A stretch of 29,659 bases of DNA, from IMG/VR virus record IMGVR_UViG_3300030339_000017. One strand, written 5' to 3'. This DNA is from an uncultured virus (IMG/VR IMGVR_UViG_3300030339_000017). Its lineage: Duplodnaviria; Heunggongvirae; Uroviricota; Caudoviricetes. This document shows, one piece after another, positions 9,820-29,658 of this stretch. Below the pieces are notes generated by a model that saw only the letters and a list, made by a program, of their open reading frames with translations, was not told the DNA's origin and made no database searches. The first letter of the stretch is position 1; every line of letters starts with the position of its first letter. Made by a program: the position numbers and the translations under genes.

Positions 9820-11607
9820 TTAAATCATTGAATATCTATAAGTTGTTTCTATATATGGTAATGTAAAGAAATTACCTTCTGAATTATTAAATTCGTAATT
9901 ACATATTAAATACTTTCCACGCATTCTATCCTGAAATCTTGATATTATTGGAGTCCCCTCGTACGTTGGGTCATTGTTATACACCGCTACTGCGCCATTT
10001 GTACTATAAAAATCAGTACCTATTGGAGTTCCATCATTATATATTCTTGTTGACAAATTCTGTTTAAGCCAGATTTGAGTCCCTATTACTACTGGATTAT
10101 AAGTCAATCCGTCTATAGTTACGTCTCCATCATTGATAGAGTTATCTTTTACGAGTCTAACTGACCCCAAGAGCATCGCCCTGTCACCAATACTGGATTC
10201 GTCAATCTCGGGACTATTGTATAGGAATTTTGGGATATAAACATGTGTATCATATGTAGAACTTATAAAATGCGCATATTGGTTTATGTCAAAATACCCA
10301 CCAGACCAACACCCACCGGGTAATGCAGAAAATCCATACTGATCAGTCGCTCCAGTATCTGGGGTTAGCCAATGAGACACTCCAGATTCTTTTAATCTTC
10401 CTCCAGCTAGAGATGTTCCACCACAATGAGCAAATAATGTCTGCCAGTCATCTTTTGTAGCCACATGCCATCCAGTTGGAGCTAACCCTCTTGAGTTAGT
10501 TGCTGCATACCAATTATATAGTCTACCATATTTTATACTAAGCGTAGACTGTACATTATTTCTAGGAATAGCAAATTTATACGTATCTTCTCTTAATGTT
10601 ATATTTGATACAGCTCCAGTAGTTATTGTTGTTATCGTAGTTAAATACACATTAGACTCATCGCCATTATACGCAGTTACAGCTCCGGATGTTCCACTGA
10701 AATCAGAACCAATAGCATCCCCATTTCTATAATGACTAGTCGCTAAGTTCTGTTTAAGCCATACCTGAGTTCCTATCGTCACTGCATTGTACGTGTCCCC
10801 ATCTATTACTATATCTCCACTATTAACACTATCGTCCTTGATTAGCCTTATAGATAGTCCAACTTTGTTTGTTGTAAAATTATATGAATCAAATCTAGCT
10901 GCTGCAGTATAACCGTATATATATAAATCATATATAGTATCTGTAGTTTGTGTAGTTGATGTCCAAAACTGAGTCCAAGATCCTAAATATCCACTTGTTG
11001 TTCCATCGTATTCTAATAAACCACTTGGGAGTGCATTAAATCCATAATCATTTGTAGCACCAACATTAGGAGTATGCCAATAGTCAGTTCCTGATCTTTT
11101 CAACTTTCCACCAGCAATGTCTATACCACCAGCGTAGTCTAGTAGGGTCTGCCATTCGGCTTTGGTTGGAATGTGCCATCCTACCGGAGCCAATCCTCTA
11201 CTATCAGATGCTGCATACCAACTATATAATCTACCATATTTAATTGATTGAGACGTAGTCGTTATACTAGTAGGAGGTGTTATTACATTTGAACTTAATT
11301 GAGTTTTAGTTCTAAAAAATATAGAAGTAAAATTATTTAAGTTAGTAAAATCTGCCGAATATAATACGTTGTCAAAAACTTTAGTAAGTTGATAATCATC
11401 GCTTACTATAAATTTAATGTATGATTTTGAGTAGCTAGCTAGATCTCCCTTGAGATAATTCGCATTTTCTAATGAATTGTGCAACAGCAATTTATTATCA
11501 TCACTAATTGAGTAATAGTGGTTACCAAAGTTTAAATACCATTTTGGATTATATGATAGAAAAGATCCAAATGATTGTGTTATTTCGGAGTAATTTAATG
11601 TATTCAT
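9820..11607 (-). CDS. C-terminal part of muzzle (tail stabilization) protein carrying two inserted FISUMP (Fib_succ_major) domains, 595 aa
   Basis: Muzzle-type C-terminal motifs (SFLSYNPKW, TKVFDNV, REDTYKFAIPR, RMRGKYLICNY, FTLPYIETTYRYSMI) are interrupted by two ~200-aa repeats containing YGRLYxW, PxGWH, AGGxLK, GFxALPxG, SxRLxKD and IGTQxWLKQNL. Confidence 0.75.
   Translation of the reverse strand: MNTLNYSEITQSFGSFLSYNPKWYLNFGNHYYSISDDNKLLLHNSLENANYLKGDLASYSKSYIKFIVSDDYQLTKVFDNVLYSADFTNLNNFTSIFFRTKTQLSSNVITPPTSITTTSQSIKYGRLYSWYAASDSRGLAPVGWHIPTKAEWQTLLDYAGGIDIAGGKLKRSGTDYWHTPNVGATNDYGFNALPSGLLEYDGTTSGYLGSWTQFWTSTTQTTDTIYDLYIYGYTAAARFDSYNFTTNKVGLSIRLIKDDSVNSGDIVIDGDTYNAVTIGTQVWLKQNLATSHYRNGDAIGSDFSGTSGAVTAYNGDESNVYLTTITTITTGAVSNITLREDTYKFAIPRNNVQSTLSIKYGRLYNWYAATNSRGLAPTGWHVATKDDWQTLFAHCGGTSLAGGRLKESGVSHWLTPDTGATDQYGFSALPGGCWSGGYFDINQYAHFISSTYDTHVYIPKFLYNSPEIDESSIGDRAMLLGSVRLVKDNSINDGDVTIDGLTYNPVVIGTQIWLKQNLSTRIYNDGTPIGTDFYSTNGAVAVYNNDPTYEGTPIISRFQDRMRGKYLICNYEFNNSEGNFFTLPYIETTYRYSMI
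9961..10539 (-). repeat. Internal domain repeat 2: circularly permuted Fib_succ_major domain (aa ~357-549)
   Basis: SIKYGRLYNWYAA...GSVRLVKD followed by IDGLTYNPVVIGTQIWLKQNL...YNDGTPI...GAVAVYNND; colinear with repeat 1. Confidence 0.75.
10645..11247 (-). repeat. Internal domain repeat 1: circularly permuted Fib_succ_major domain (aa ~121-321)
   Basis: SIKYGRLYSWYAA...LSIRLIKD followed by IDGDTYNAVTIGTQVWLKQNL...YRNGDAI...GAVTAYNGD; flanked by Thr-rich linkers. Confidence 0.75.
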
Positions 11608-14600
11608 TTAGTTTATAGAAGATGCGTCTTCAAGTCCATTTAACGTTAATATTATCTCATTGTATTTTGCATCATATATCATCGGAATGAAATCAGTAAT
11701 AGAGTCTTTACTTCTATTAAGTGCAGTCTGAATTCCTTTTATTTTTGATAATGGTTCAATTCCTTGTTTGTACGTACATAATTCATTTCTATAATGATCA
11801 AACCAATATATTCCAGAATTAGATGTAGATAGATTTCCAAATGTATTCATTTTCATTCCATTATTGCTGGATATATAATCAAACCTAGAAAGTATGCCCC
11901 CAGTACCGAGTGATAATTGACTAGCACTGCCATTATTTATCAACGCTCTTTCATTTACAGACAAAACGCCAAATGCATTCTCTTGCCAAAAATATAATTT
12001 GCTTTGAAATCTTTTAAGTCTAGTTATTTTCCCATATTCAGTTTCTACATCAATTCTGTTAGCGGCCTTAAACATGGACCAATTATCATATAATTCTCCA
12101 TTTGTCTTAACTTGAGAAGACCATACCCTACAATCAAATGACAGATTCTCAGTGCTTAATATTAGCTTAGACACATAACCTATTCCAGAATTTTCAGACG
12201 AGTATCCAGAATTGTATAGAAATTGTGGATACTTTTGAGAATATGTCCACTTACTTCCAGCACTAGCGCCTGGAGCCCATAGTCCAGCATTCTTTTGTAT
12301 TGCAAAGTTATATCCGCCAGATACAAATGATTTAGTAGAGGCTAAGTGCATGTTTATTGAAGACTCAAGTGGAAGTAAAGACCCTATATTTCTTATTTGA
12401 TTATATAATATACCCTCTCTGTTTACTTTTAAATTTCCACTTCCATCTACCATTGGATCAGTAGCATGTGTTATGGTATAATCGAATATGCCTATATACG
12501 TGTCTCCTCCAAATACTACTCCAGATGCAGATCCACTAGCGACATCTATATATGTTCCTGTAGAAATATATTCAGTAAACTGTCTATCTATTAGTGAAGC
12601 TCCTCCGTATATAGACGCATTCATTACTTTAAAGTTAGTTACAAACGTAGACATACCAGATGATATTATCTTGTCTAAAGTTTCATAACCTGCGTATATT
12701 TCTGAACTTAAGTACTTCTTTCTTTTCTGATCTATATATGATATTGATGGCAATTGCTCAGAATCCTCTAAATTTAACACAATACCACTACCATGAGTGC
12801 CCATTGATTTTGATTTAGATATTGCATTTGCAAATTCCCATTGATCTGGAGCACCATCCCCATGATTAACTGGAATTGTAAAATTAAGATATTGTTTTCC
12901 TCCAATAGTTACATATTTAGATGCTGGTATATCTTTCATAAAATCCCCAATAGTGGCAGACGAAATATCTATATCGTCAGAGTACTCAAATTCAGTAATA
13001 GTACTACTTAACTTCATCCCGCTATTTGATAGGGAATCTATTGAAGTAGTAGTTATGTCAGTGTAATTGTTTGTATTTTGAGTAATTAATTCTATAGAAG
13101 TACCGCCTAAAGACGACCCTGATTTCACTTTAAAATATCTACCAAAGTACTTAAATGTAAATCCCTCTCTAGAATTATCGTTAGCAGAATCAATTAAAAC
13201 TGCAGGAGCAGACGGATTCATATCTGAATACGCTCCATTTATCCCATGATTATATGCAGCTCCAGCATCTGGTTTGTATATAATACCACCTAGAGATATG
13301 TATGTTCTGAACTTCAACTCACTCCATGTTCCAACTATATTTTGTGGAACTATATCAAATTCATCTATTACAGGTGCAATTTGATTATCTCTTACCGCTT
13401 TATCGGTACTTAATCCAGAAATAACTTTATAGTATGTTCCAGCGAATCCATTCGTTATAAAAGGCTTATTATCAGCTACAGTAAAGTCATTTGGATATGT
13501 TTTAGTATTTACATCGGCACCAAGATACATACCGGTTGCATATCTAATACTAGTACTATTTGGGTAAAACTGCATTGCATTATGAGCTGTGTCACCTAAA
13601 TATGCAGTACCAAATGCCGAAGTAGTTATGCCTATTACTGGAGGAGTAGATATAGGATATATTAAATCTACTATATCCAAAGTAGGCTTAGTAGTAATAT
13701 CTTTTAATTGAGATACGAAATCAACCCCATAGAACGATGTCTCTGGATTAACAAATAGTAAATAGTTTTTATTATAAAAGTATGGAAATACTGAATCGGT
13801 AGTATACAATCTAGTAGTTATGGATGCATCATTGTTATTATATGGGGCATCGGTAGCATCTATCGTTCCATTATAAGCATCAAACGCTGTAGCATCAACA
13901 TCTGTTATTCCAATTCTATCTGATACTTTATTATATACTGGGGCACAAACAGATAAGGAATGCCCCATAGAGATAACCGGATGTGGTCTTAATGAATTTA
14001 TAAGCCCAGAATTAGTTATATCATATACAGTGCCGCTAGTACTAGAAGCCTTATGATTTCTATATGTTCCAACTTTTTGGACAACGCCTTGAGCATATAC
14101 CGTTTTATTATTTATATCCCTCTTTGCTCTTACTATTTCTATTTTTGTTATATACTCAGGAATACTAGTAAAACTAAATGTTATTCCAAGCGGTTTAACT
14201 AATAGTTCTTGATAGTTCAGTAAAGTATTGTTATATACGGTAGAATTTAGTTCGGCAGGATTTTCAAATATACTAGCATCCCATCCTGTTGATTCTATGT
14301 AGCCGGCAGGAAATCTAATATCTGCAATCCATTTTGCTGGAGATCTTCTTCCTTTTGAATCATAAAATACTGCAGCGAATCTATATATTTCATCTCTTTG
14401 ATATGATGCGAAATTATTAGATAAGTATGGATTAGAATAGTTTAAAAATCCAGTATGAGATGGTAAATTTAAATTAGATAGACTTAAATCACTAGAAGTC
14501 CCATCGCTGCTTAGTGTCTTTACTGAAGATATACTTCTAGATTTATCTCCAATCCTAGCGGTTCTCTGGTCAATAAATTTATCTTTATCATTAGCCCATG

Positions 14601-15963
14601 ACTCAGAGTATCCTCCAGATGTGCTTATAGTTCTTTTATTCCAAAAATCACCATACGACTCTATAAAGTATGTATTTGTATACAAGTATGATACATTAAC
14701 TCCGGTACCGCCCAGTTTACCAGATGTATTGTATATATATGATAAATCAGAATATCTATCTTTTGAATATATTTCATCGTGAATACAATCATATGTTGGA
14801 TCTATAGTAGAGATAGTAGATATAGAGTAATCTAAATAACTCCCACCTGCATTGTGCAATCTAGTGGTACCACTTAAATTAAATTGATAAGCTCTAGTAT
14901 CATAATCTAAATCCCACGTATCATCTATAGTATTTGCAGCAAATAGAATATTATCCTTGCTTTCTATTAATGCAGTTTTAAATATCGTACTTCCAATCGC
15001 CTGTAATTCCGCCTGAGTTAACTCTCCAGAAGCTTCGGTTCCTCCATCTTCTATGTATACGAATCCAGAGGAGTTAACAGGTATTAGCGAGTCTTTTACT
15101 ACCGTTATTATAGGAGCATCAGAATAATTAAAATAATATACAGAAATTAACTTCACACTCTTAAATATTCCAGTAGTAGGTATGTTTATTTTTAATCTAA
15201 CCGACTTGCTACTGGGCTTACCATAAGTGGTTCCTAAGTCTGTACCAATGTAATCTGCATTACTAGAACCCATAGTACTATCAGTAAGATGAATAATAGG
15301 ACTCATCGGACTAAGCTCTGTCTCAGCACCTGTCCATGCTACTAATTGATAGCAGTACTGTATGATACCAGCATTTAATTTGCCACTATTAAGAGATTCT
15401 ACTATAGGAGCATCTAATATTGCAGATGGAATTATTTCCATTGTAGACGAAGTTAACAGTCTATTAGACGTATCATTGGACTCTGCTATATTTATAACCC
15501 TTATAAATGAACCTTCCACTGCGTAATATACTTTTATATTATCAGAGTTTTCATATCTTGTTACTATACTAATCGGTATAGTTCCGATCATCTCTAACCA
15601 AACTCCAAGTCCATCAGTACCAAGAAGGGGCGTACATGAAATTGCGGCTCCTGGATTATTCATATCAAAAACTAATCTATATATGTTATTTAGATTAGTA
15701 GTAGAATTATACGTAAATATAACACCATAATTTCTAATGGTATCAGTAGCAATAATAGTATCTCCGCTATTTAGATTAAGACCACTTATTAGTGAATTTC
15801 CTTCTATATTAGATAGGGAACCAGTATTGGCTCCCTCATTAGTTATGACCCTGACATTTTCAGCGTATCTGTATTGATTATTTTTTAGTAAACTCTTATC
15901 AGTGTCGAGATTCATTCCTCCACTAAATGTGTTTACTGTTTTCTTTCCTATAGTACTAGCCAT
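11608..15963 (-). CDS. Muzzle / tail stabilization protein (crAss001 gp44-like), N-terminal 1451 aa
   Basis: Hallmark motifs NTFSGGMNLDTD...QYRYAENVR, SYQRDEIYRFAAVFYD...SPAKWIADIRFP, VFGGDTYIGIFDY, LESSIN, FKAANRIDVETEYGKIT, LSVNERALI, LGTGGILSRFDYIS, YDAKYNEI. Confidence 0.85.
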   Translation of the reverse strand: MASTIGKKTVNTFSGGMNLDTDKSLLKNNQYRYAENVRVITNEGANTGSLSNIEGNSLISGLNLNSGDTIIATDTIRNYGVIFTYNSTTNLNNIYRLVFDMNNPGAAISCTPLLGTDGLGVWLEMIGTIPISIVTRYENSDNIKVYYAVEGSFIRVINIAESNDTSNRLLTSSTMEIIPSAILDAPIVESLNSGKLNAGIIQYCYQLVAWTGAETELSPMSPIIHLTDSTMGSSNADYIGTDLGTTYGKPSSKSVRLKINIPTTGIFKSVKLISVYYFNYSDAPIITVVKDSLIPVNSSGFVYIEDGGTEASGELTQAELQAIGSTIFKTALIESKDNILFAANTIDDTWDLDYDTRAYQFNLSGTTRLHNAGGSYLDYSISTISTIDPTYDCIHDEIYSKDRYSDLSYIYNTSGKLGGTGVNVSYLYTNTYFIESYGDFWNKRTISTSGGYSESWANDKDKFIDQRTARIGDKSRSISSVKTLSSDGTSSDLSLSNLNLPSHTGFLNYSNPYLSNNFASYQRDEIYRFAAVFYDSKGRRSPAKWIADIRFPAGYIESTGWDASIFENPAELNSTVYNNTLLNYQELLVKPLGITFSFTSIPEYITKIEIVRAKRDINNKTVYAQGVVQKVGTYRNHKASSTSGTVYDITNSGLINSLRPHPVISMGHSLSVCAPVYNKVSDRIGITDVDATAFDAYNGTIDATDAPYNNNDASITTRLYTTDSVFPYFYNKNYLLFVNPETSFYGVDFVSQLKDITTKPTLDIVDLIYPISTPPVIGITTSAFGTAYLGDTAHNAMQFYPNSTSIRYATGMYLGADVNTKTYPNDFTVADNKPFITNGFAGTYYKVISGLSTDKAVRDNQIAPVIDEFDIVPQNIVGTWSELKFRTYISLGGIIYKPDAGAAYNHGINGAYSDMNPSAPAVLIDSANDNSREGFTFKYFGRYFKVKSGSSLGGTSIELITQNTNNYTDITTTSIDSLSNSGMKLSSTITEFEYSDDIDISSATIGDFMKDIPASKYVTIGGKQYLNFTIPVNHGDGAPDQWEFANAISKSKSMGTHGSGIVLNLEDSEQLPSISYIDQKRKKYLSSEIYAGYETLDKIISSGMSTFVTNFKVMNASIYGGASLIDRQFTEYISTGTYIDVASGSASGVVFGGDTYIGIFDYTITHATDPMVDGSGNLKVNREGILYNQIRNIGSLLPLESSINMHLASTKSFVSGGYNFAIQKNAGLWAPGASAGSKWTYSQKYPQFLYNSGYSSENSGIGYVSKLILSTENLSFDCRVWSSQVKTNGELYDNWSMFKAANRIDVETEYGKITRLKRFQSKLYFWQENAFGVLSVNERALINNGSASQLSLGTGGILSRFDYISSNNGMKMNTFGNLSTSNSGIYWFDHYRNELCTYKQGIEPLSKIKGIQTALNRSKDSITDFIPMIYDAKYNEIILTLNGLEDASSIN

Positions 15964-17875: not shown

Positions 17876-18403
17876 TTATGCTACTAGTTTTTCTAATTCA
17901 TCGTGGTAAAACTGTCTATCTTTAAGTCCATTAGTACCACCATTTATTCTTTTGCATACTAATGTAAAATTACCGGCATCAGTTATCCTATTTAGTTTTT
18001 TAGAATTCCAAAACCAGCAAGCTGATCTAGTTGCTAAGTCCGGCTGTTCTAATAGTGCAGGGTTGTTTACTAAATCTATATTAAAGTCTTTAGACAATTG
18101 TATATAGTTTGATTTTCCAGTTATCTGTATTAGCCCTCGACCTTTATACTTAACGCCATCACCAGGAGTAGTATTGCCTAGATCCTTTCTTCCTTCATAG
18201 GCCTTACCAGAAGCTAATTCTTTAGTATAAAAGAATCTCCCAGACTCAACAAGGATATTTGCAATAAAGAAGATTTCTCTATCTTTAGTATTTATAGAAT
18301 ACTCATCCATGTACTTTTCTAGTAAAGGATAGAATATATCAATAGTATGCTGTGAGATCTTGTTATTGCAGACCTTTAATATGTCTTTTTTAGTAACTAT
18401 CAT
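17876..18403 (-). CDS. Endolysin, glycoside hydrolase family 19 (chitinase/lysozyme-like), 175 aa
   Basis: FIANILVESG..YTKE..SGKAYEGRKDLGNTTPGDGVKYKGRGLIQITGKSNY...ACWFW...RINGGTNGLKDR are GH19 phage endolysin motifs. Confidence 0.92.
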   Translation of the reverse strand: MIVTKKDILKVCNNKISQHTIDIFYPLLEKYMDEYSINTKDREIFFIANILVESGRFFYTKELASGKAYEGRKDLGNTTPGDGVKYKGRGLIQITGKSNYIQLSKDFNIDLVNNPALLEQPDLATRSACWFWNSKKLNRITDAGNFTLVCKRINGGTNGLKDRQFYHDELEKLVA

Positions 18404-19531: not shown

Positions 19532-21805
19532 TTATTGAACAGTATAAGTAAACATTAAATTAAACCTAGCCCCACTTGGAGACTCAAATGTATTATTCGT
19601 ATAGAATGTGGTTTTGTTCGCCGATATATTTCCCTCGGTAAAATAATCAATATTCTGATTAAATATCAGGTTCCCAGTTCCATAGGTAGATATTGTACTT
19701 ATTGGCATTGTTATGTCAAATGATTTTGCAGCCGTAGTCGAGGTAGACATTATTCCGAGTATATATATTGTAACTAAATTGCCTATTCTAGTATAATATG
19801 AATACAGACTAGACATTGAAGATGTGTTTACTAAATTAGAATAGGTTGGAGTGAAACTAGTACTAGAACTTCCAGACGATGTAGTTAAATACGTATTTGA
19901 GTCCACGCTTCCATCGGCCTTTAGAAACTGGCTAGAGGTCCCCCCTGATTTAATAAAGTTTGTAGCTGTTACAGTAGATGAAAATGTTGCTGCGCTTGTA
20001 GAGAATGATAATCTCGACACTCCAAATTGGTTGTCTATAAAATTCAATTTGTTTTCAGATTCAGATACTTTTACGCTCCAATTATTAGATGAATTTGAAA
20101 AAAATAAATCATTCGTATCTTGTAAATTAAATCTTGTTGCTGTTATAGTTCCGAATGATGGAGAATTTGTTGTCGATAGCCTTTGATTTTCTATCGGTTG
20201 AAAATCTCCAACAGCACTATTCGCAGCCGTACCAAAGGTGCGACCTTCCAAAACTGTTCCTGTAGTTGTGCCGAAGTTCTTATTGAATGCTGTGTTTTTT
20301 GAGAAGGCTTGTTCATACACTCCACTATGATTATGATCCCCATAAGCAGCGGTTGAATGCGATGTGCCAAATCCCGGAAATGATACCAGTCCATTCCAAG
20401 TTGAGATATTCGAAGTAGTCGGCATTGCGTAACCGATTGTCAGGCTAAAAATCCCAGTTGTATTAGTATAAGTAAGTCCAGTGGCAGAACTTGACAAAGA
20501 TGTTAACTGAATTGGGGTATAGCCTAAAGCGGCTGTAACTTGTCCACTCGTAATACCAGTTAAATAACTAACATTGCTTCCTGCCGTCGCCAAGCCTTTA
20601 GCGTTAATAGTGATGTTATTATAAGTACCTATATTTGAATTTACAGTTGCTAAAGTCAAAGCGGTCGAGCCTGTTGCATCGCCTGTATGTGTAGCATTTG
20701 AAACCAAACCACTATAGAGTGAATTTACTGCATTATCACCTGTATTTGACCCTGAAAATGACAAATTAGGAACGTTCGATAGCCCAACATCTGACTTAGT
20801 AGTATTATGCGGATTTCCAGTTAATAACTGCGAATGATCGTATGCAATCTTCCCTCTATCTCCTCTATATGCCGTAGAAGACGTTTCTCCTAACGCTAGA
20901 GAAGTGCTTATCAAAACATATATTGAGCCAGACCATCTATAGGTAAGATTAGTAGTAGTATCTACATATATTTTACCAGATTCTGGCGTATATGCAGTTC
21001 CTAGTGGATTATTAAATATGCTACCACTTATCCAGGTACCCTCTAATACATCATCTACATAGCTTGGTAACTGAGTATTTTTTACGAATCCATTAGAATC
21101 GAGTTCAGCCAATCCATTCGCAGTCCCTTTTAAAGAAGTATTTAATTTAGTTGAATCAATCTTTGAGGAGCTCCAGGTATAGTCTAGTACCGTTTTAGTA
21201 TCATCTATTAACTGCCCTGCATCCCCAGGGATTCCTTGCACTCCCTGGGGTCCTTGGATGCCTTGTATGCCTTGTAATCCCTGGTCACCCTTATCCCCTT
21301 TGGGGCCAGGATTTCCAGTCGTCCCGGCAGGACCTTGAGGCCCTTGATCACCTTTATCTCCTTTTTCCCCATCAGTACCATCAGATCCATCATCTCCCTT
21401 ATCCCCTTTTGGACCAACAACCCCTTGCACCCCTTGAGGACCTTGATTCCCAATATCACCTTTTGGTCCCTGTATTCCTTGAGGGCCTTGTGGACCAATA
21501 GGACCTACTGGACCCGTACTTCCAGTATCACCTTTTTCACCTTTTGTTCCACCAAAATACACATCTAGTCCAAAATCAGATATTTCAGCAGATACTGAAA
21601 AATCAAATGCTAATTCATTCGGATCTATATTTATAGTAAAATCAGATAAAGATACCCCAACAGAAAATGGAATACGCAAATTATCTGTTGCTACATCTAT
21701 AGAAAATGAATTATTAGATATAATATTATCTATAGATAAATTAGTGATATCCATAGATGTATTTATAGAAAAATCTATATTATCATATGTTGGTGTAGTA
21801 GGCAT
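19532..21805 (-). CDS. Collagen-containing tail fibre protein, 757 aa
   Basis: Acidic beta-rich N-terminus, 38 G-X-Y triplets, fibre motifs TWSSSKI, NGLAELDSNG..QLPSYVDDVLE, GKIYVD..YRWSGS, LGETSSTAYRGDRG, NPH..TKSDVGL, FIKSGGTSSQFLKADGSVD, and C-terminal YTRIGNLVT (gp53-like/receptor-binding end). Confidence 0.85.
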   Translation of the reverse strand: MPTTPTYDNIDFSINTSMDITNLSIDNIISNNSFSIDVATDNLRIPFSVGVSLSDFTINIDPNELAFDFSVSAEISDFGLDVYFGGTKGEKGDTGSTGPVGPIGPQGPQGIQGPKGDIGNQGPQGVQGVVGPKGDKGDDGSDGTDGEKGDKGDQGPQGPAGTTGNPGPKGDKGDQGLQGIQGIQGPQGVQGIPGDAGQLIDDTKTVLDYTWSSSKIDSTKLNTSLKGTANGLAELDSNGFVKNTQLPSYVDDVLEGTWISGSIFNNPLGTAYTPESGKIYVDTTTNLTYRWSGSIYVLISTSLALGETSSTAYRGDRGKIAYDHSQLLTGNPHNTTKSDVGLSNVPNLSFSGSNTGDNAVNSLYSGLVSNATHTGDATGSTALTLATVNSNIGTYNNITINAKGLATAGSNVSYLTGITSGQVTAALGYTPIQLTSLSSSATGLTYTNTTGIFSLTIGYAMPTTSNISTWNGLVSFPGFGTSHSTAAYGDHNHSGVYEQAFSKNTAFNKNFGTTTGTVLEGRTFGTAANSAVGDFQPIENQRLSTTNSPSFGTITATRFNLQDTNDLFFSNSSNNWSVKVSESENKLNFIDNQFGVSRLSFSTSAATFSSTVTATNFIKSGGTSSQFLKADGSVDSNTYLTTSSGSSSTSFTPTYSNLVNTSSMSSLYSYYTRIGNLVTIYILGIMSTSTTAAKSFDITMPISTISTYGTGNLIFNQNIDYFTEGNISANKTTFYTNNTFESPSGARFNLMFTYTVQ
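21209..21550 (-). repeat. Collagen-like (Gly-X-Y)38 repeat
   Basis: Uninterrupted triplets from GTK (aa 86) to GQL (aa 199), counted by hand. Confidence 0.92.
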
Positions 21806-22489: not shown

Positions 22490-23584
22490 TTAATAGTGGT
22501 ATAGATTGTTTATTGTGACTGGAAGTATTGACTCAGTTAGTGTTGGATCAGAGACATTAGTACTCGTTCCAGCAGCATCTAAACAGTTTTTATTTGCTGA
22601 ATTGTAATTATAATTCCTAGGGTTCCCATTGCTATCTAAATAGTATACTCTGTTATTCTGAATAGTGTTACTATAACAAGTAGCAGAAGATGGGATAGCA
22701 TCGAAATTATACATTATAAGACCATCTGTCTGATTAAGTGGATTAGCTAATGCTTGAGATTGATATAACGTATTATTTTCAACAGTTATATCATGGCCGC
22801 CTGCTAATCCTATTCCTCCTCCTACTACGTTTATGATAACATTATTCTTAACGTGAATATACGAGGATCCATTATCACCTATAGTTACTGCACCTCCAGT
22901 GTGATTTGGAGTATTATAATCTCCACCTCTAAACCAATTGCCTATTACTTGAATAGAATCTGAAATGCTACCATACGTATTAAAACAAGATACTATGTCA
23001 TCAACGTGGGATTGAAGATGAATATTCTCAAAAGTATTGTAGTTCACTTTTATTCCAGGTCCATTGCAACTAGTTAGCTGAACAGCATGGTAGCCAACAG
23101 AGCCACCCATAGTATTTTTAAAATAATTATGTAGTACTGTTATACCCGAATTTATCCCTCCATTAAACGCGTTAGAAGCATTTGCACTAACCTTGACGCC
23201 ATTACTACACGAGTCAAATACACACCCATATATAGTTACGGTCTGACCATTTTCGATAGATATAGCTGCTCCAGTTATATTTTTGAATTTACAATTTCTT
23301 ATAGTTATATTGCCACATTCCCATAGTTTTATAGGATTTGACATACTATTAAATGTCTTATTTTCTATGATAGTATTACTATTTGCAGTAAACAATTCAA
23401 TAGCAGTCGAAGTGGTATAGGATGGGCTAGATATAACATTATATCCATTTATAACAGCGCCAACGGTTGGAGTAATAACGGGGGTTGATGGATAATAAAA
23501 TTGATTTCCACTCACAGATAAAACCTGTGATCTGACCGCGAATGCACAGGCTATAAGAGCTAATAATATAATTATATTTCTCAT
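22490..23584 (-). CDS. Secreted right-handed parallel beta-helix (pectin-lyase-like) protein, 364 aa
   Basis: Signal peptide MRNIIILLALIACAFAVRS|Q; repeats NITIRNCKF, TVTIYGCVF, ITVLHNYF, IKVNYNTF, IQVIGNWF, IHVKNNVI, ITVENNTL, TIQNNRV. Confidence 0.8.
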   Translation of the reverse strand: MRNIIILLALIACAFAVRSQVLSVSGNQFYYPSTPVITPTVGAVINGYNVISSPSYTTSTAIELFTANSNTIIENKTFNSMSNPIKLWECGNITIRNCKFKNITGAAISIENGQTVTIYGCVFDSCSNGVKVSANASNAFNGGINSGITVLHNYFKNTMGGSVGYHAVQLTSCNGPGIKVNYNTFENIHLQSHVDDIVSCFNTYGSISDSIQVIGNWFRGGDYNTPNHTGGAVTIGDNGSSYIHVKNNVIINVVGGGIGLAGGHDITVENNTLYQSQALANPLNQTDGLIMYNFDAIPSSATCYSNTIQNNRVYYLDSNGNPRNYNYNSANKNCLDAAGTSTNVSDPTLTESILPVTINNLYHY

Positions 23585-28342: not shown

Positions 28343-28370
28343 ATATAAATGCAGTTTATTGCATTTATAT
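28343..28370. other. Perfect 11-bp inverted repeat directly after the endonuclease stop
   Basis: ATATAAATGCA-GTTTAT-TGCATTTATAT; no U tract follows on the coding (minus) strand, so not a classical terminator in that direction. Confidence 0.5.
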
Positions 28371-29008
28371 TATTCTTTTAATTTCCAGATGAATTTAGGT
28401 GCAGGACCTCTTCTAATATCAGTTCTAACGCCTCTTTTAATTATTCCCCAGATCGTAGCTCTATTAACTCCAGTAATTTCATATGCACTTTTTATGGAAT
28501 CAAATTCTGCTAATTTATTCATATTGATGTCATATTGTATAACTGGTTTCACCCTGTTTTTATTCATCAATATGACTCTTTCTATATTTTCTTTAGATAT
28601 TGGATTTAATTTGTGAGATTCAGACATTCTAGCTCTAATCTCCTCGCTAGCTCTTCTTCCGAGCGCTTTTCGTCTTATCTTCTCTTTAGTCTCGTCTGAG
28701 TGAAGCCTTCCAAATGTGCCATCTCCACCAATAGTTCTATTATATCCTATTGATCTATCTGTTGTATTATAAAATGAAATCCAGAATTTTTCTCTTTCTT
28801 TCATTTTTTCCGCACTATCGCACACTTCAATTGTATCGATAGTAAAATTTTCTTTTCCGTATTTATTTATTGAACGGTGAATAGGAAACGAAGAGCCAGA
28901 TCTTGATTCATACAAGTGATGCAGAAATCGAGTTCTAGCTCCCTGTATCGTTATCCCAATATATATTTTGTTATTTAATTTATTTTCAATTTTATAGACT
29001 TCATACAT
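28370..29008 (-). mobile_element. Free-standing GIY-YIG homing endonuclease with NUMOD3 and NUMOD1/IENR1-like DNA-binding modules, 212 aa
   Basis: VYKIENKLNNKIYIGIT...R..H...KYGKENF...E...GYN catalytic domain; HSDETKEKIR/SEEIRARMSESHK (NUMOD3); KPVIQYD...EFDSIKSA (NUMOD1-like HTH); inserted between MCP and its usual neighbour. Confidence 0.9.
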
Positions 29009-29082: not shown

Positions 29083-29658
29083 TTAGTCCTGGATGTCGAG
29101 TATTAATTCTCCACACGCTCTGGGGTCACGCACCATTATGCCTACTTCGCCTAAGAAATGTACAGAATAACCATCTTTTGCATTTGAACGCAAAGTATTG
29201 ATAGATTTTCCATATCCAGCTCCCGGGGTAACAGAACCACCAGTATGCCACATAACCATTTCTCTATCTTTTCTAGCTACCTTAACGATATTTGCTTGAC
29301 CATCACGCATTCCAAAATCAAGGAATGTAAAACGATAAGATTCAGTTGGTTTACCACTAATTGGATGCAATTTACGATTATGAACAATATCATCATACAT
29401 CGGAAGATGTTTAACAGTAAGTTCAATACCATTATGCATACGATAGGTAACAAATTGTCCACCTAATACAAGTTCTTGACCAGCTCCTGAAACGAATTTA
29501 GTATCAATTAAATTGAACGATGTCAATTTTTCTTTCAATACTCTATCGAATTCACGCATACCCATTTCTCCTGTGAAAGCTACAAACTTACGTTCGTTAG
29601 TTCCAAGGATGTTATAAGACATATCAAATAAGAAGTCTTCTAACAAATCGGCAGTTAA
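29083..29658 (-). CDS. Major capsid protein of crAss-like phage (C-terminal part, 5' end beyond window)
   Basis: Frame open to the window edge (LTADLLEDFLFDMSYNILGTNERKF..TGEMG.REFDR...GGQFVTY..NGIELT...HP..GKP..SY...DGY.VHFLGE.GIM.RDP.ACG), characteristic of Crassvirales MCP. Confidence 0.93.
   Translation of the reverse strand, partial: LTADLLEDFLFDMSYNILGTNERKFVAFTGEMGMREFDRVLKEKLTSFNLIDTKFVSGAGQELVLGGQFVTYRMHNGIELTVKHLPMYDDIVHNRKLHPISGKPTESYRFTFLDFGMRDGQANIVKVARKDREMVMWHTGGSVTPGAGYGKSINTLRSNAKDGYSVHFLGEVGIMVRDPRACGELILDIQD

Follow-up and report, generated by a model that had tools for sequence, protein, structure and literature searches.

A 29,659-nucleotide stretch of uncultured-virus DNA (IMG/VR record IMGVR_UViG_3300030339_000017; the window, by which we mean this whole stretch) carries at positions 9820..11607 an open reading frame (ORF) of 595 amino acids (aa), P0001. 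We consider it probable that P0001 is the split-off end of the tail muzzle of a crAss-like phage, a separate C-terminal muzzle module with two circularly permuted, lectin-like FISUMP domains inserted as cassettes into its loops. An earlier interpretation made from the DNA letters alone (the sequence-only reading) had placed an ORF at this position without giving a strand; the position was right, and the strand is minus, with the stop codon at 9820-9822 and the plus-strand frame at 9820-11607 full of stops. All features of the window given below lie on the minus strand.

P0001 contains two repeats, residues 112-318 and 348-548, that are 47% identical (E 6e-63). The whole protein matches Fib_succ_major (PF09603) with 214.9 bits against a cut-off of 33.9, as the sequence-only reading had anticipated, and TIGR02145 with 179.8 bits against a cut-off of 41.65. 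When Pfam was run on sub-pieces of the protein, copy 1 matched profile positions 43-187 at aa 117-257 and positions 1-44 at aa 276-317, and copy 2 matched positions 48-187 at aa 358-487 and positions 1-46 at aa 506-549. In neither unit does the profile run from 1 to 187, and a half-domain scan of P0001 reads C-N-C-N. Judged from these matches, both units are in rotated order. Copy 1 is made up of a C-half (aa 123-258; 10834..11241; profile 43-187) and, after a joint of 7 residues, an N-half (aa 266-321; 10645..10812; profile 1-44); the rotated unit of copy 2 (aa 359-550; 9958..10533) consists of a C-half at 359-488 and an N-half at 496-550. Domain models give split or overlapping matches for such units, which is how the rotated form comes to be overlooked.

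The residues around the two units are those of a muzzle. The uninterrupted, single-ORF muzzles of cr50_1 and cr1_1 align with P0001 at 1-124, 339-352 and 560-595, the three stretches being separated by gaps of about 214 and 207 residues, and the motif REDTYKFAIPR is invariant. This alignment bears out the proposal that the flanks are muzzle C-termini and, together with the order of the Pfam sub-pieces, supports the placing of two circularly permuted FISUMP units in loops of the muzzle end. P0001 hits crAss_MUZ_C (PF25729) with 40.9 bits (cut-off 27): aa 58-106 correspond to profile positions 9-62 of 83 (E 2.8e-10, above the cut-off) and aa 318-350 weakly to positions 50-83 (E 0.037). Thus, crAss_MUZ_C is not found as a contiguous domain at the end of one polypeptide; it is interrupted by two inserts of ~200 aa and lies on a separate ORF.

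Scaffold piece 1 (aa 1-122; 11242..11607) includes the strand TSITTTSQSI (aa 113-122), which leads into insert 1. The return strand (L)TTITTITT and scaffold piece 2 follow at 10534..10644, with a predicted strand at aa 321-330, of which Y321 falls in the neighbouring part, and with REDTYKFAIPR (aa 339-349) at 10561-10593. Scaffold piece 3, delimited by the alignment, is aa 551-595 (DRMRGKYLICNY...LPYIETTYRYSMI; 9823..9957). In the alignment the strand TSITTTSQSIKY falls on one that belongs to the scaffold itself, TSETLTSEDIDY, and the latter stands immediately before REDTYKFAIPR in uninterrupted proteins; insert 1 is therefore read as lying in a turn between two adjacent scaffold strands, which suggests as its site the turn that leads from strand 113-122 to that of REDTYKFAIPR. 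Insert 2, at what we call site 2, takes the place of a short loop between the ...IPRN.. end of REDTYKFAIPR and DRMRGKYL. On either side of copy 1 the Thr-rich flank is predicted to form a strand of 10 residues (113-122 and 321-330), and the 10-residue blocks covering them average 92 and 93 in the predicted local distance difference test (pLDDT), in agreement with the earlier suggestion that copy 1 sits on two such strands. As a general feature of rotated units, Thr-rich flanks were rejected, being present on both sides in 2 of the 44 units examined.

The P0001 gene is split from the muzzle body. The body is encoded immediately upstream by P0002 (1451 aa; 11608..15963), which matches the crAss_MUZ profile at positions 2-1187 of 1224 (E 3.6e-208) and ends at the start of P0001; at the junction (11605..11610) the TAA stop of P0002 is followed at once, in the same frame, by the ATG of P0001. 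The N-terminus of P0123, a stand-alone relative of P0001, matches crAss_MUZ profile positions 1190-1223. A single ORF encodes the muzzle in all reference Crassvirales genomes examined (cr50_1, cr1_1, cr118_1 and crAss001). The ORF had been called a muzzle protein: it does carry the C-terminal muzzle module, but it holds only the last ~175 residues of the muzzle and is a separate gene. A phmmer search with aa 1-124 of P0001 against 1.84 billion representatives returned 51 matches. Of these, 17 are short proteins (144-191 aa) in which the match begins no later than residue 20; stand-alone proteins with inserts account for 5 (P0008, P0035, P0124, P0130 and P0039), fused muzzles without FISUMP, 1218-1524 aa long, for 17, and fragments or unclear cases for 12. 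Word-index searches with the same segment gave no matches although relatives exist, and they are silent on fused forms with FISUMP. Stand-alone proteins P0008, P0035, P0039, P0123, P0124 and P0125 share a common start point, M..T(L/I/V)NYSE. On a 93-kb IMG/VR contig (L006), a 1477-aa muzzle body is followed, after TAA-T-ATG, by the 375-aa P0008 in another frame; a split across different frames argues for a conserved gene fission in the lineage and not for an error.

The rotated units are distributed in the manner of cassettes. Copy 1 shares 73.6% identity with the unit carried by P0009, a 972-aa protein with collagen repeats, and copy 2 shares 68.8% with that of P0021, whereas the two copies are 46.6% identical to one another and have no DNA repeat in common. 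With a nearer match in another phage protein than in its sibling, each copy behaves like a cassette that has been shuffled. The insert-free P0123 (174 aa) and P0035 (372 aa), which has a rotated FISUMP insert of ~200 aa, are identical at 126/128 and 37/41 residues of their flanks, so that the insert was recently gained or lost. On another crAss-like IMG/VR contig (L007, 5800-8627), two adjacent FISUMP ORFs of 325 aa and 612 aa (the latter P0107) lie ahead of the ring-protein genes, where the window has its fibre genes, with the ring 2 gene downstream. A FastTree phylogeny of 272 C-halves contained no single clean rotated clade; the largest pure clade holds 28 of the 48 rotated units (support 0.83), and the others are scattered.

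Different domains, and the same domain with different break points, are found in the loops of related muzzle ends. In P0039 (649 aa) the N-terminal part of the scaffold provides a third site of insertion (aa 58-310), occupied by a FISUMP with another break point, in the order C-half 58-137, N-half, C-half 2-40. P0130 (aa 121-290) and P0124 (aa 130-300) carry at site 2 an insert of ~165 aa with weak matches to Lcl_C and Lcl-adhesin models that stay below the cut-offs (E 2.5e-4, 2e-3 and 9e-4). The first block of the P0130 insert (aa 129-182) is 52% identical (E 8e-15) to the end of the P0124 insert (aa 247-300); this relation points to another case of circular permutation at this loop, P0130 apparently having the normal order and P0124 the rotated one. 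A domain in normal order in the site-2 loop means that rotation is compatible with loop insertion and not needed for it. The idea that permutation is what allows loop insertion thus does not hold as a requirement, and rotated FISUMP units also stand in line in fibre-like proteins. The comparisons provide evidence that the loops of the muzzle end may be hot spots accepting different lectin-type domains in different orders.

As regards the fold, VIA-align against 48,161 chains listed almost only C-type-lectin-like, FGE-like and variable proteins of diversity-generating retroelements (DGRs). Foldseek against the Protein Data Bank (PDB) found nothing at E <= 0.001 for a model of a single unit; for a poor full-length model its top rows were 7qok_A and 7qol_P, the crAss001 muzzle, at non-significant E-values of 0.11 and 0.35. 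When the PDB was searched by sequence, no relative came up for P0001, P0002, the canonical FISUMP protein P0071 or a profile of short muzzle ends. The rotated phage units have largely lost a cysteine pair that is conserved in the family: among 228 canonical domains, cysteine occupies the N-half column 49 with a frequency of 0.80 and the C-half column 134 with 0.86, compared with 0.06 and 0.00 in 16 rotated phage units. At the canonical cysteine positions (GAYCxYNND and SVRCVKD) P0001 has T or V and L, so that it lacks the pair, and the replacements noted by the sequence-only reading at these two positions (RL for RC, and TAY or AVY where the canonical motif has C(Y)YNN) were thus substantiated. 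A third, LCP to LAP, was not, the canonical consensus being already IAP with no conserved cysteine there in the set. The site-2 unit of P0039 retains both canonical cysteines. Tight tandem arrays in which the first half is a C-half and the last an N-half, often at the protein end, were seen in P0070, P0080, P0086, P0022, P0034, P0036, P0049 and P0116; they keep the N-half cysteine (0.94) and have mostly lost the C-half one (0.11).

We propose that P0001 is a second polypeptide that would complete the 1451-aa muzzle body. Each of two surface loops would bear a self-contained, circularly permuted FISUMP domain of C-type-lectin-like fold, composed of the C-terminal two thirds, a 7-residue linker and the N-terminal third. 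The ends of such a unit would be neighbours in the canonical fold, and the unit could therefore sit on a loop or on a two-stranded stalk. With six muzzle subunits, a virion would display outwards 12 extra lectin-like heads of two kinds, which would most likely bind glycans of the host surface, for adsorption or as a signal for muzzle opening. The rotated units would be exchangeable cassettes, borne also by fibre-like proteins of related phages. Their fold class, their position in the tail, their sharing with fibres and the pattern of gain, loss and swapping suggest that they are putative ligand-binding heads in host recognition. A wider proposal, which we advance tentatively and rate a little short of an even chance, is that the loops of a dedicated muzzle-end adaptor are hot spots for lectin cassettes, that rotated FISUMP is a distinct, mostly phage-borne, cysteine-free subfamily moving between fibres and muzzle, that an Lcl/DUF1566-like type was rotated independently, and that the 12 heads, with two specificities, act in host recognition.

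The location of the scaffold within the muzzle can be estimated by comparison with gp44 of crAss001. When a profile built from 16 short relatives was aligned with this protein, it fell at ~1201-1352 of 1371 residues (hhalign probability 96.4%, E 1.1e-9), and Pfam places crAss_MUZ_C at about residues 1244-1333. According to the accessible part of the structural paper, gp44 comprises IG1 (163-292), IG2 with the crass domain (318-1021) and, in the remainder, a seven-bladed propeller and a ring-joining domain (PMC10172136). From the alignment and these domain limits we conclude that the scaffold probably belongs to the propeller or ring-joining part of the muzzle, and that the heads would not be on the distal crass domain.

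Several observations weigh against the interpretation as a whole. Being away from the distal crass domain, the heads are perhaps ill-placed for the first contact with the cell. The best single stretch reported by HMMER, aa 276-487 against profile positions 1-187, is in canonical order and runs across the two copies. The full-length AlphaFold2 model of P0001 is poor (pLDDT 55.8, predicted TM-score (pTM) 0.37), with an unreadable domain arrangement; its alignment had 21 rows, 4 of them over the FISUMP parts, and richer MAFFT sets were misaligned, with units stacked on copy 1 or REDTYKF displaced. Strand pairing and contacts between the halves are read from confidence values and comparison and not from contacts seen in a structure. 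Finally, the 17 short relatives may include cut ORFs, as P0152 seems to be, and the split was verified at the DNA level in two places, the window and L006.

The heads might be real without being binders of a host receptor, serving instead to hold the virion to mucus, food particles or environmental glycans, or to brace or decorate the muzzle. This would fit with a scaffold that lies outside the crass domain, the part proposed as cell-contacting in the accessible text of PMC10172136, and with the dispensability of the heads: insert-free muzzle ends are common, with 17/51 short and 17/51 fused without FISUMP, and the near-identical P0123 and P0035 differ only by the insert. However, the cassette also occurs on the collagen-repeat protein P0009 and in the L007 ORFs ahead of the ring genes, the usual place of host recognition; close relatives have gained, lost and swapped it, as one would expect of a determinant of host range; and C-type-lectin-fold domains are known phage receptor binders. 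We therefore regard a role unrelated to the host receptor as unlikely, though worth keeping in view, and favour putative heads for host recognition.

The canonical-order stretch found by HMMER is the alternative that had been named beforehand as a refutation, and the pairing of the halves therefore had to be tested. On this alternative, N-half 266-321 and C-half 359-488 form an ordinary FISUMP interrupted by a 37-residue excursion that is the muzzle strand, the orphan 123-258 pairs over a long range with 496-550, and there is no true permutation. Besides the single Pfam match covering profile positions 1-187, it can draw on the existence of C-first, N-last tandem arrays (P0070, P0080 and P0086), in which pairing is ambiguous. 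Hidden Markov models of the N-half (61 positions) and the C-half (137 positions) were built from both copies, iterated, and scanned against P0001 and its 120 best matches, and the order from first to last half was counted from near-complete halves in these 121 proteins. The order runs from N-half to C-half in 93 proteins, from C-half to N-half in 24, from C to C in 2 and from N to N in 2. Ten of the 121 proteins (P0008, P0009, P0021, P0035, P0073, P0101, P0107, P0110, P0114 and P0122) have a lone C-N unit and no other half; with no other parts of the family present, the C-half can pair only with the N-half that follows it. Two of them, the stand-alone muzzle-end relatives P0008 and P0035, have one insert, a C-N unit at site 2. 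In rotated proteins the linker from C to N is 7-19 aa long, with a median of 9 aa (n=46), and the junction from N to C in canonical proteins a median of 0 aa (n=217), whereas the alternative requires 37 aa between N-half 1 and C-half 2 of P0001, a distance that holds a conserved scaffold strand.

Models of single units agree with pairing inside each unit. AlphaFold2 folds aa 101-358 alone with a pLDDT of 87.4 and a pTM of 0.81, from an alignment of 24 rows, all rotated-family proteins; the N-half is its most confident part, with blocks at 89-98, and the trailing muzzle strand is disordered. In a BFVD search, a 1026-aa viral protein matched 210 columns in sequence order with a root-mean-square deviation of 2.0 Å at 40% identity (E 1.8e-18). 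The rotated unit is autonomous. It is thus highly probable that the halves pair within each unit, as the sequence-only reading had it, and not the end of copy 1 with the start of copy 2, and we consider an ordinary FISUMP spread across both copies very improbable. That the stop arose by recent nonsense mutation of a normally single muzzle gene, or through a sequencing error, the 595-aa ORF being no gene of its own, would suit the shared frame of P0002 and P0001, one TAA apart, and the fused ORF of the four reference genomes, but is extremely improbable given the ATG immediately after the stop, the six stand-alone proteins that begin at the same point and the different frame of the second gene in L006.

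All long ORFs of the 29.6-kb window are on the minus strand and together make up a Crassvirales structural module: the end of the major capsid protein, a GIY-YIG endonuclease, ring protein 3/4, a beta-helix protein, a collagen-repeat fibre, a GH19-like protein, ring 2, ring 1, P0002 as the muzzle body, P0001 and three large downstream ORFs. The collagen-repeat fibre protein (757 aa; 19532-21805) and the beta-helix protein (364 aa; 22490-23584) are likely tail fibres or spikes. FISUMP occurs in neither, and in the visible part of the phage the lectin units are found only on the muzzle end. An ORF of homing-endonuclease type with GIY-YIG and NUMOD1/NUMOD3 (28370-29008) adjoins the end of the major capsid protein gene (29083-29646), and a 175-aa ORF with a Glyco_hydro_19 match (chitinase or lysozyme-like, E 2.9e-8; 17876-18403) lies within the tail gene block beside ring 2. 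Identity between the muzzle body and Crassvirales references lies at 27-37%, with the highest values for cr1_1 (family Suoliviridae in its record) and cr55_1. A megablast search of phage genomes with 8 kb of the window gave no match, and the phage appears to be only distantly related to deposited genomes. A related-locus search of viral contigs returned 0 relatives with P0001 as query and 5 loci with P0008.

The closest known counterpart of the muzzle is gp44 of Bacteroides phage crAss001 (PDB 7QOK/7QOL; PF25731 and PF25729; Bayfield et al. 2023), which the window resembles in profile matches and in gene order (ring 1, muzzle, large downstream genes). In contrast to gp44, a single chain of 1371 aa in which the two loops are short, the window has two genes and loops with inserts. 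The muzzle of crAss001 is a hexamer thought to touch the cell surface; the accessible part of the same paper attributes length variation to insertions in crass and IG2, not in the C-terminal module, and mentions no lectin domains (PMC10172136). The split nozzle of Pseudomonas podophage A1002 is likewise a podovirus tail-tip protein made from two gene products; this phage is unrelated and is likened to the window by description only, and the accessible part of its description mentions no lectin inserts (PMC13730344).

FISUMP domains (PF09603, TIGR02145) are found in Bacteroidota, Fibrobacteres and other bacteria, and P0001 shares with them YGxLYNWY, GWHVP, SxRxxKD, DGxxYxxVxIGxQxW and the full domain length. 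Unlike canonical FISUMP, the P0001 units are rotated, lack the cysteine pair and are carried on a loop of a virion protein instead of forming part of a secreted multi-domain one. Among phages, C-type-lectin-fold receptor-binding proteins are described in epsilon crAss-like phages (PMC11054128), and Fib_succ_major and DUF1566 are DGR targets in Bacteroides phages (PMC8143477, PMC5758913), as far as the accessible parts of these papers go. Compared with such C-type-lectin binders and variable proteins (Bordetella phage Mtd, the DGR targets of B. uniformis phages (PMC8143477) and the receptor-binding protein of epsilon crAss-like phages (PMC11054128)), the units described here are rotated and form a muzzle insert, not the end of a fibre. 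The 29.6-kb window, which is part of a phage genome, contained no reverse transcriptase family among its ORFs and no template-like repeat of the FISUMP regions, and a reading of the units as DGR targets was rejected for this visible part.

Muzzles and their length variation, lectin-fold receptor binders of phages and a split nozzle in an unrelated phage are thus already known. In a literature search covering titles and abstract openings, with subscription journals outside its coverage, we found no paper on a rotated FISUMP domain or on a lectin insert in a muzzle. As far as that search reaches, the rotated, cysteine-free FISUMP as a recurrent stand-alone module, the insertion into two loops of a separate muzzle end and the evidence for loop hot spots would be new.

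crAss-like phages are very abundant viruses of the gut, and their host recognition is largely unknown. If the interpretation is true, a muzzle with swappable lectin heads common to fibres would constitute a second host-recognition site beside the fibres, and the cassettes could offer a sequence marker for predicting shifts in host range. The near-identical scaffolds of P0123 and P0035, with and without the insert, would form a natural pair for the comparison of host ranges. For protein evolution, these muzzle ends may supply natural cases of a fold that recurs at one and the same loop, sometimes in the usual order, sometimes rotated, and with varying break points.

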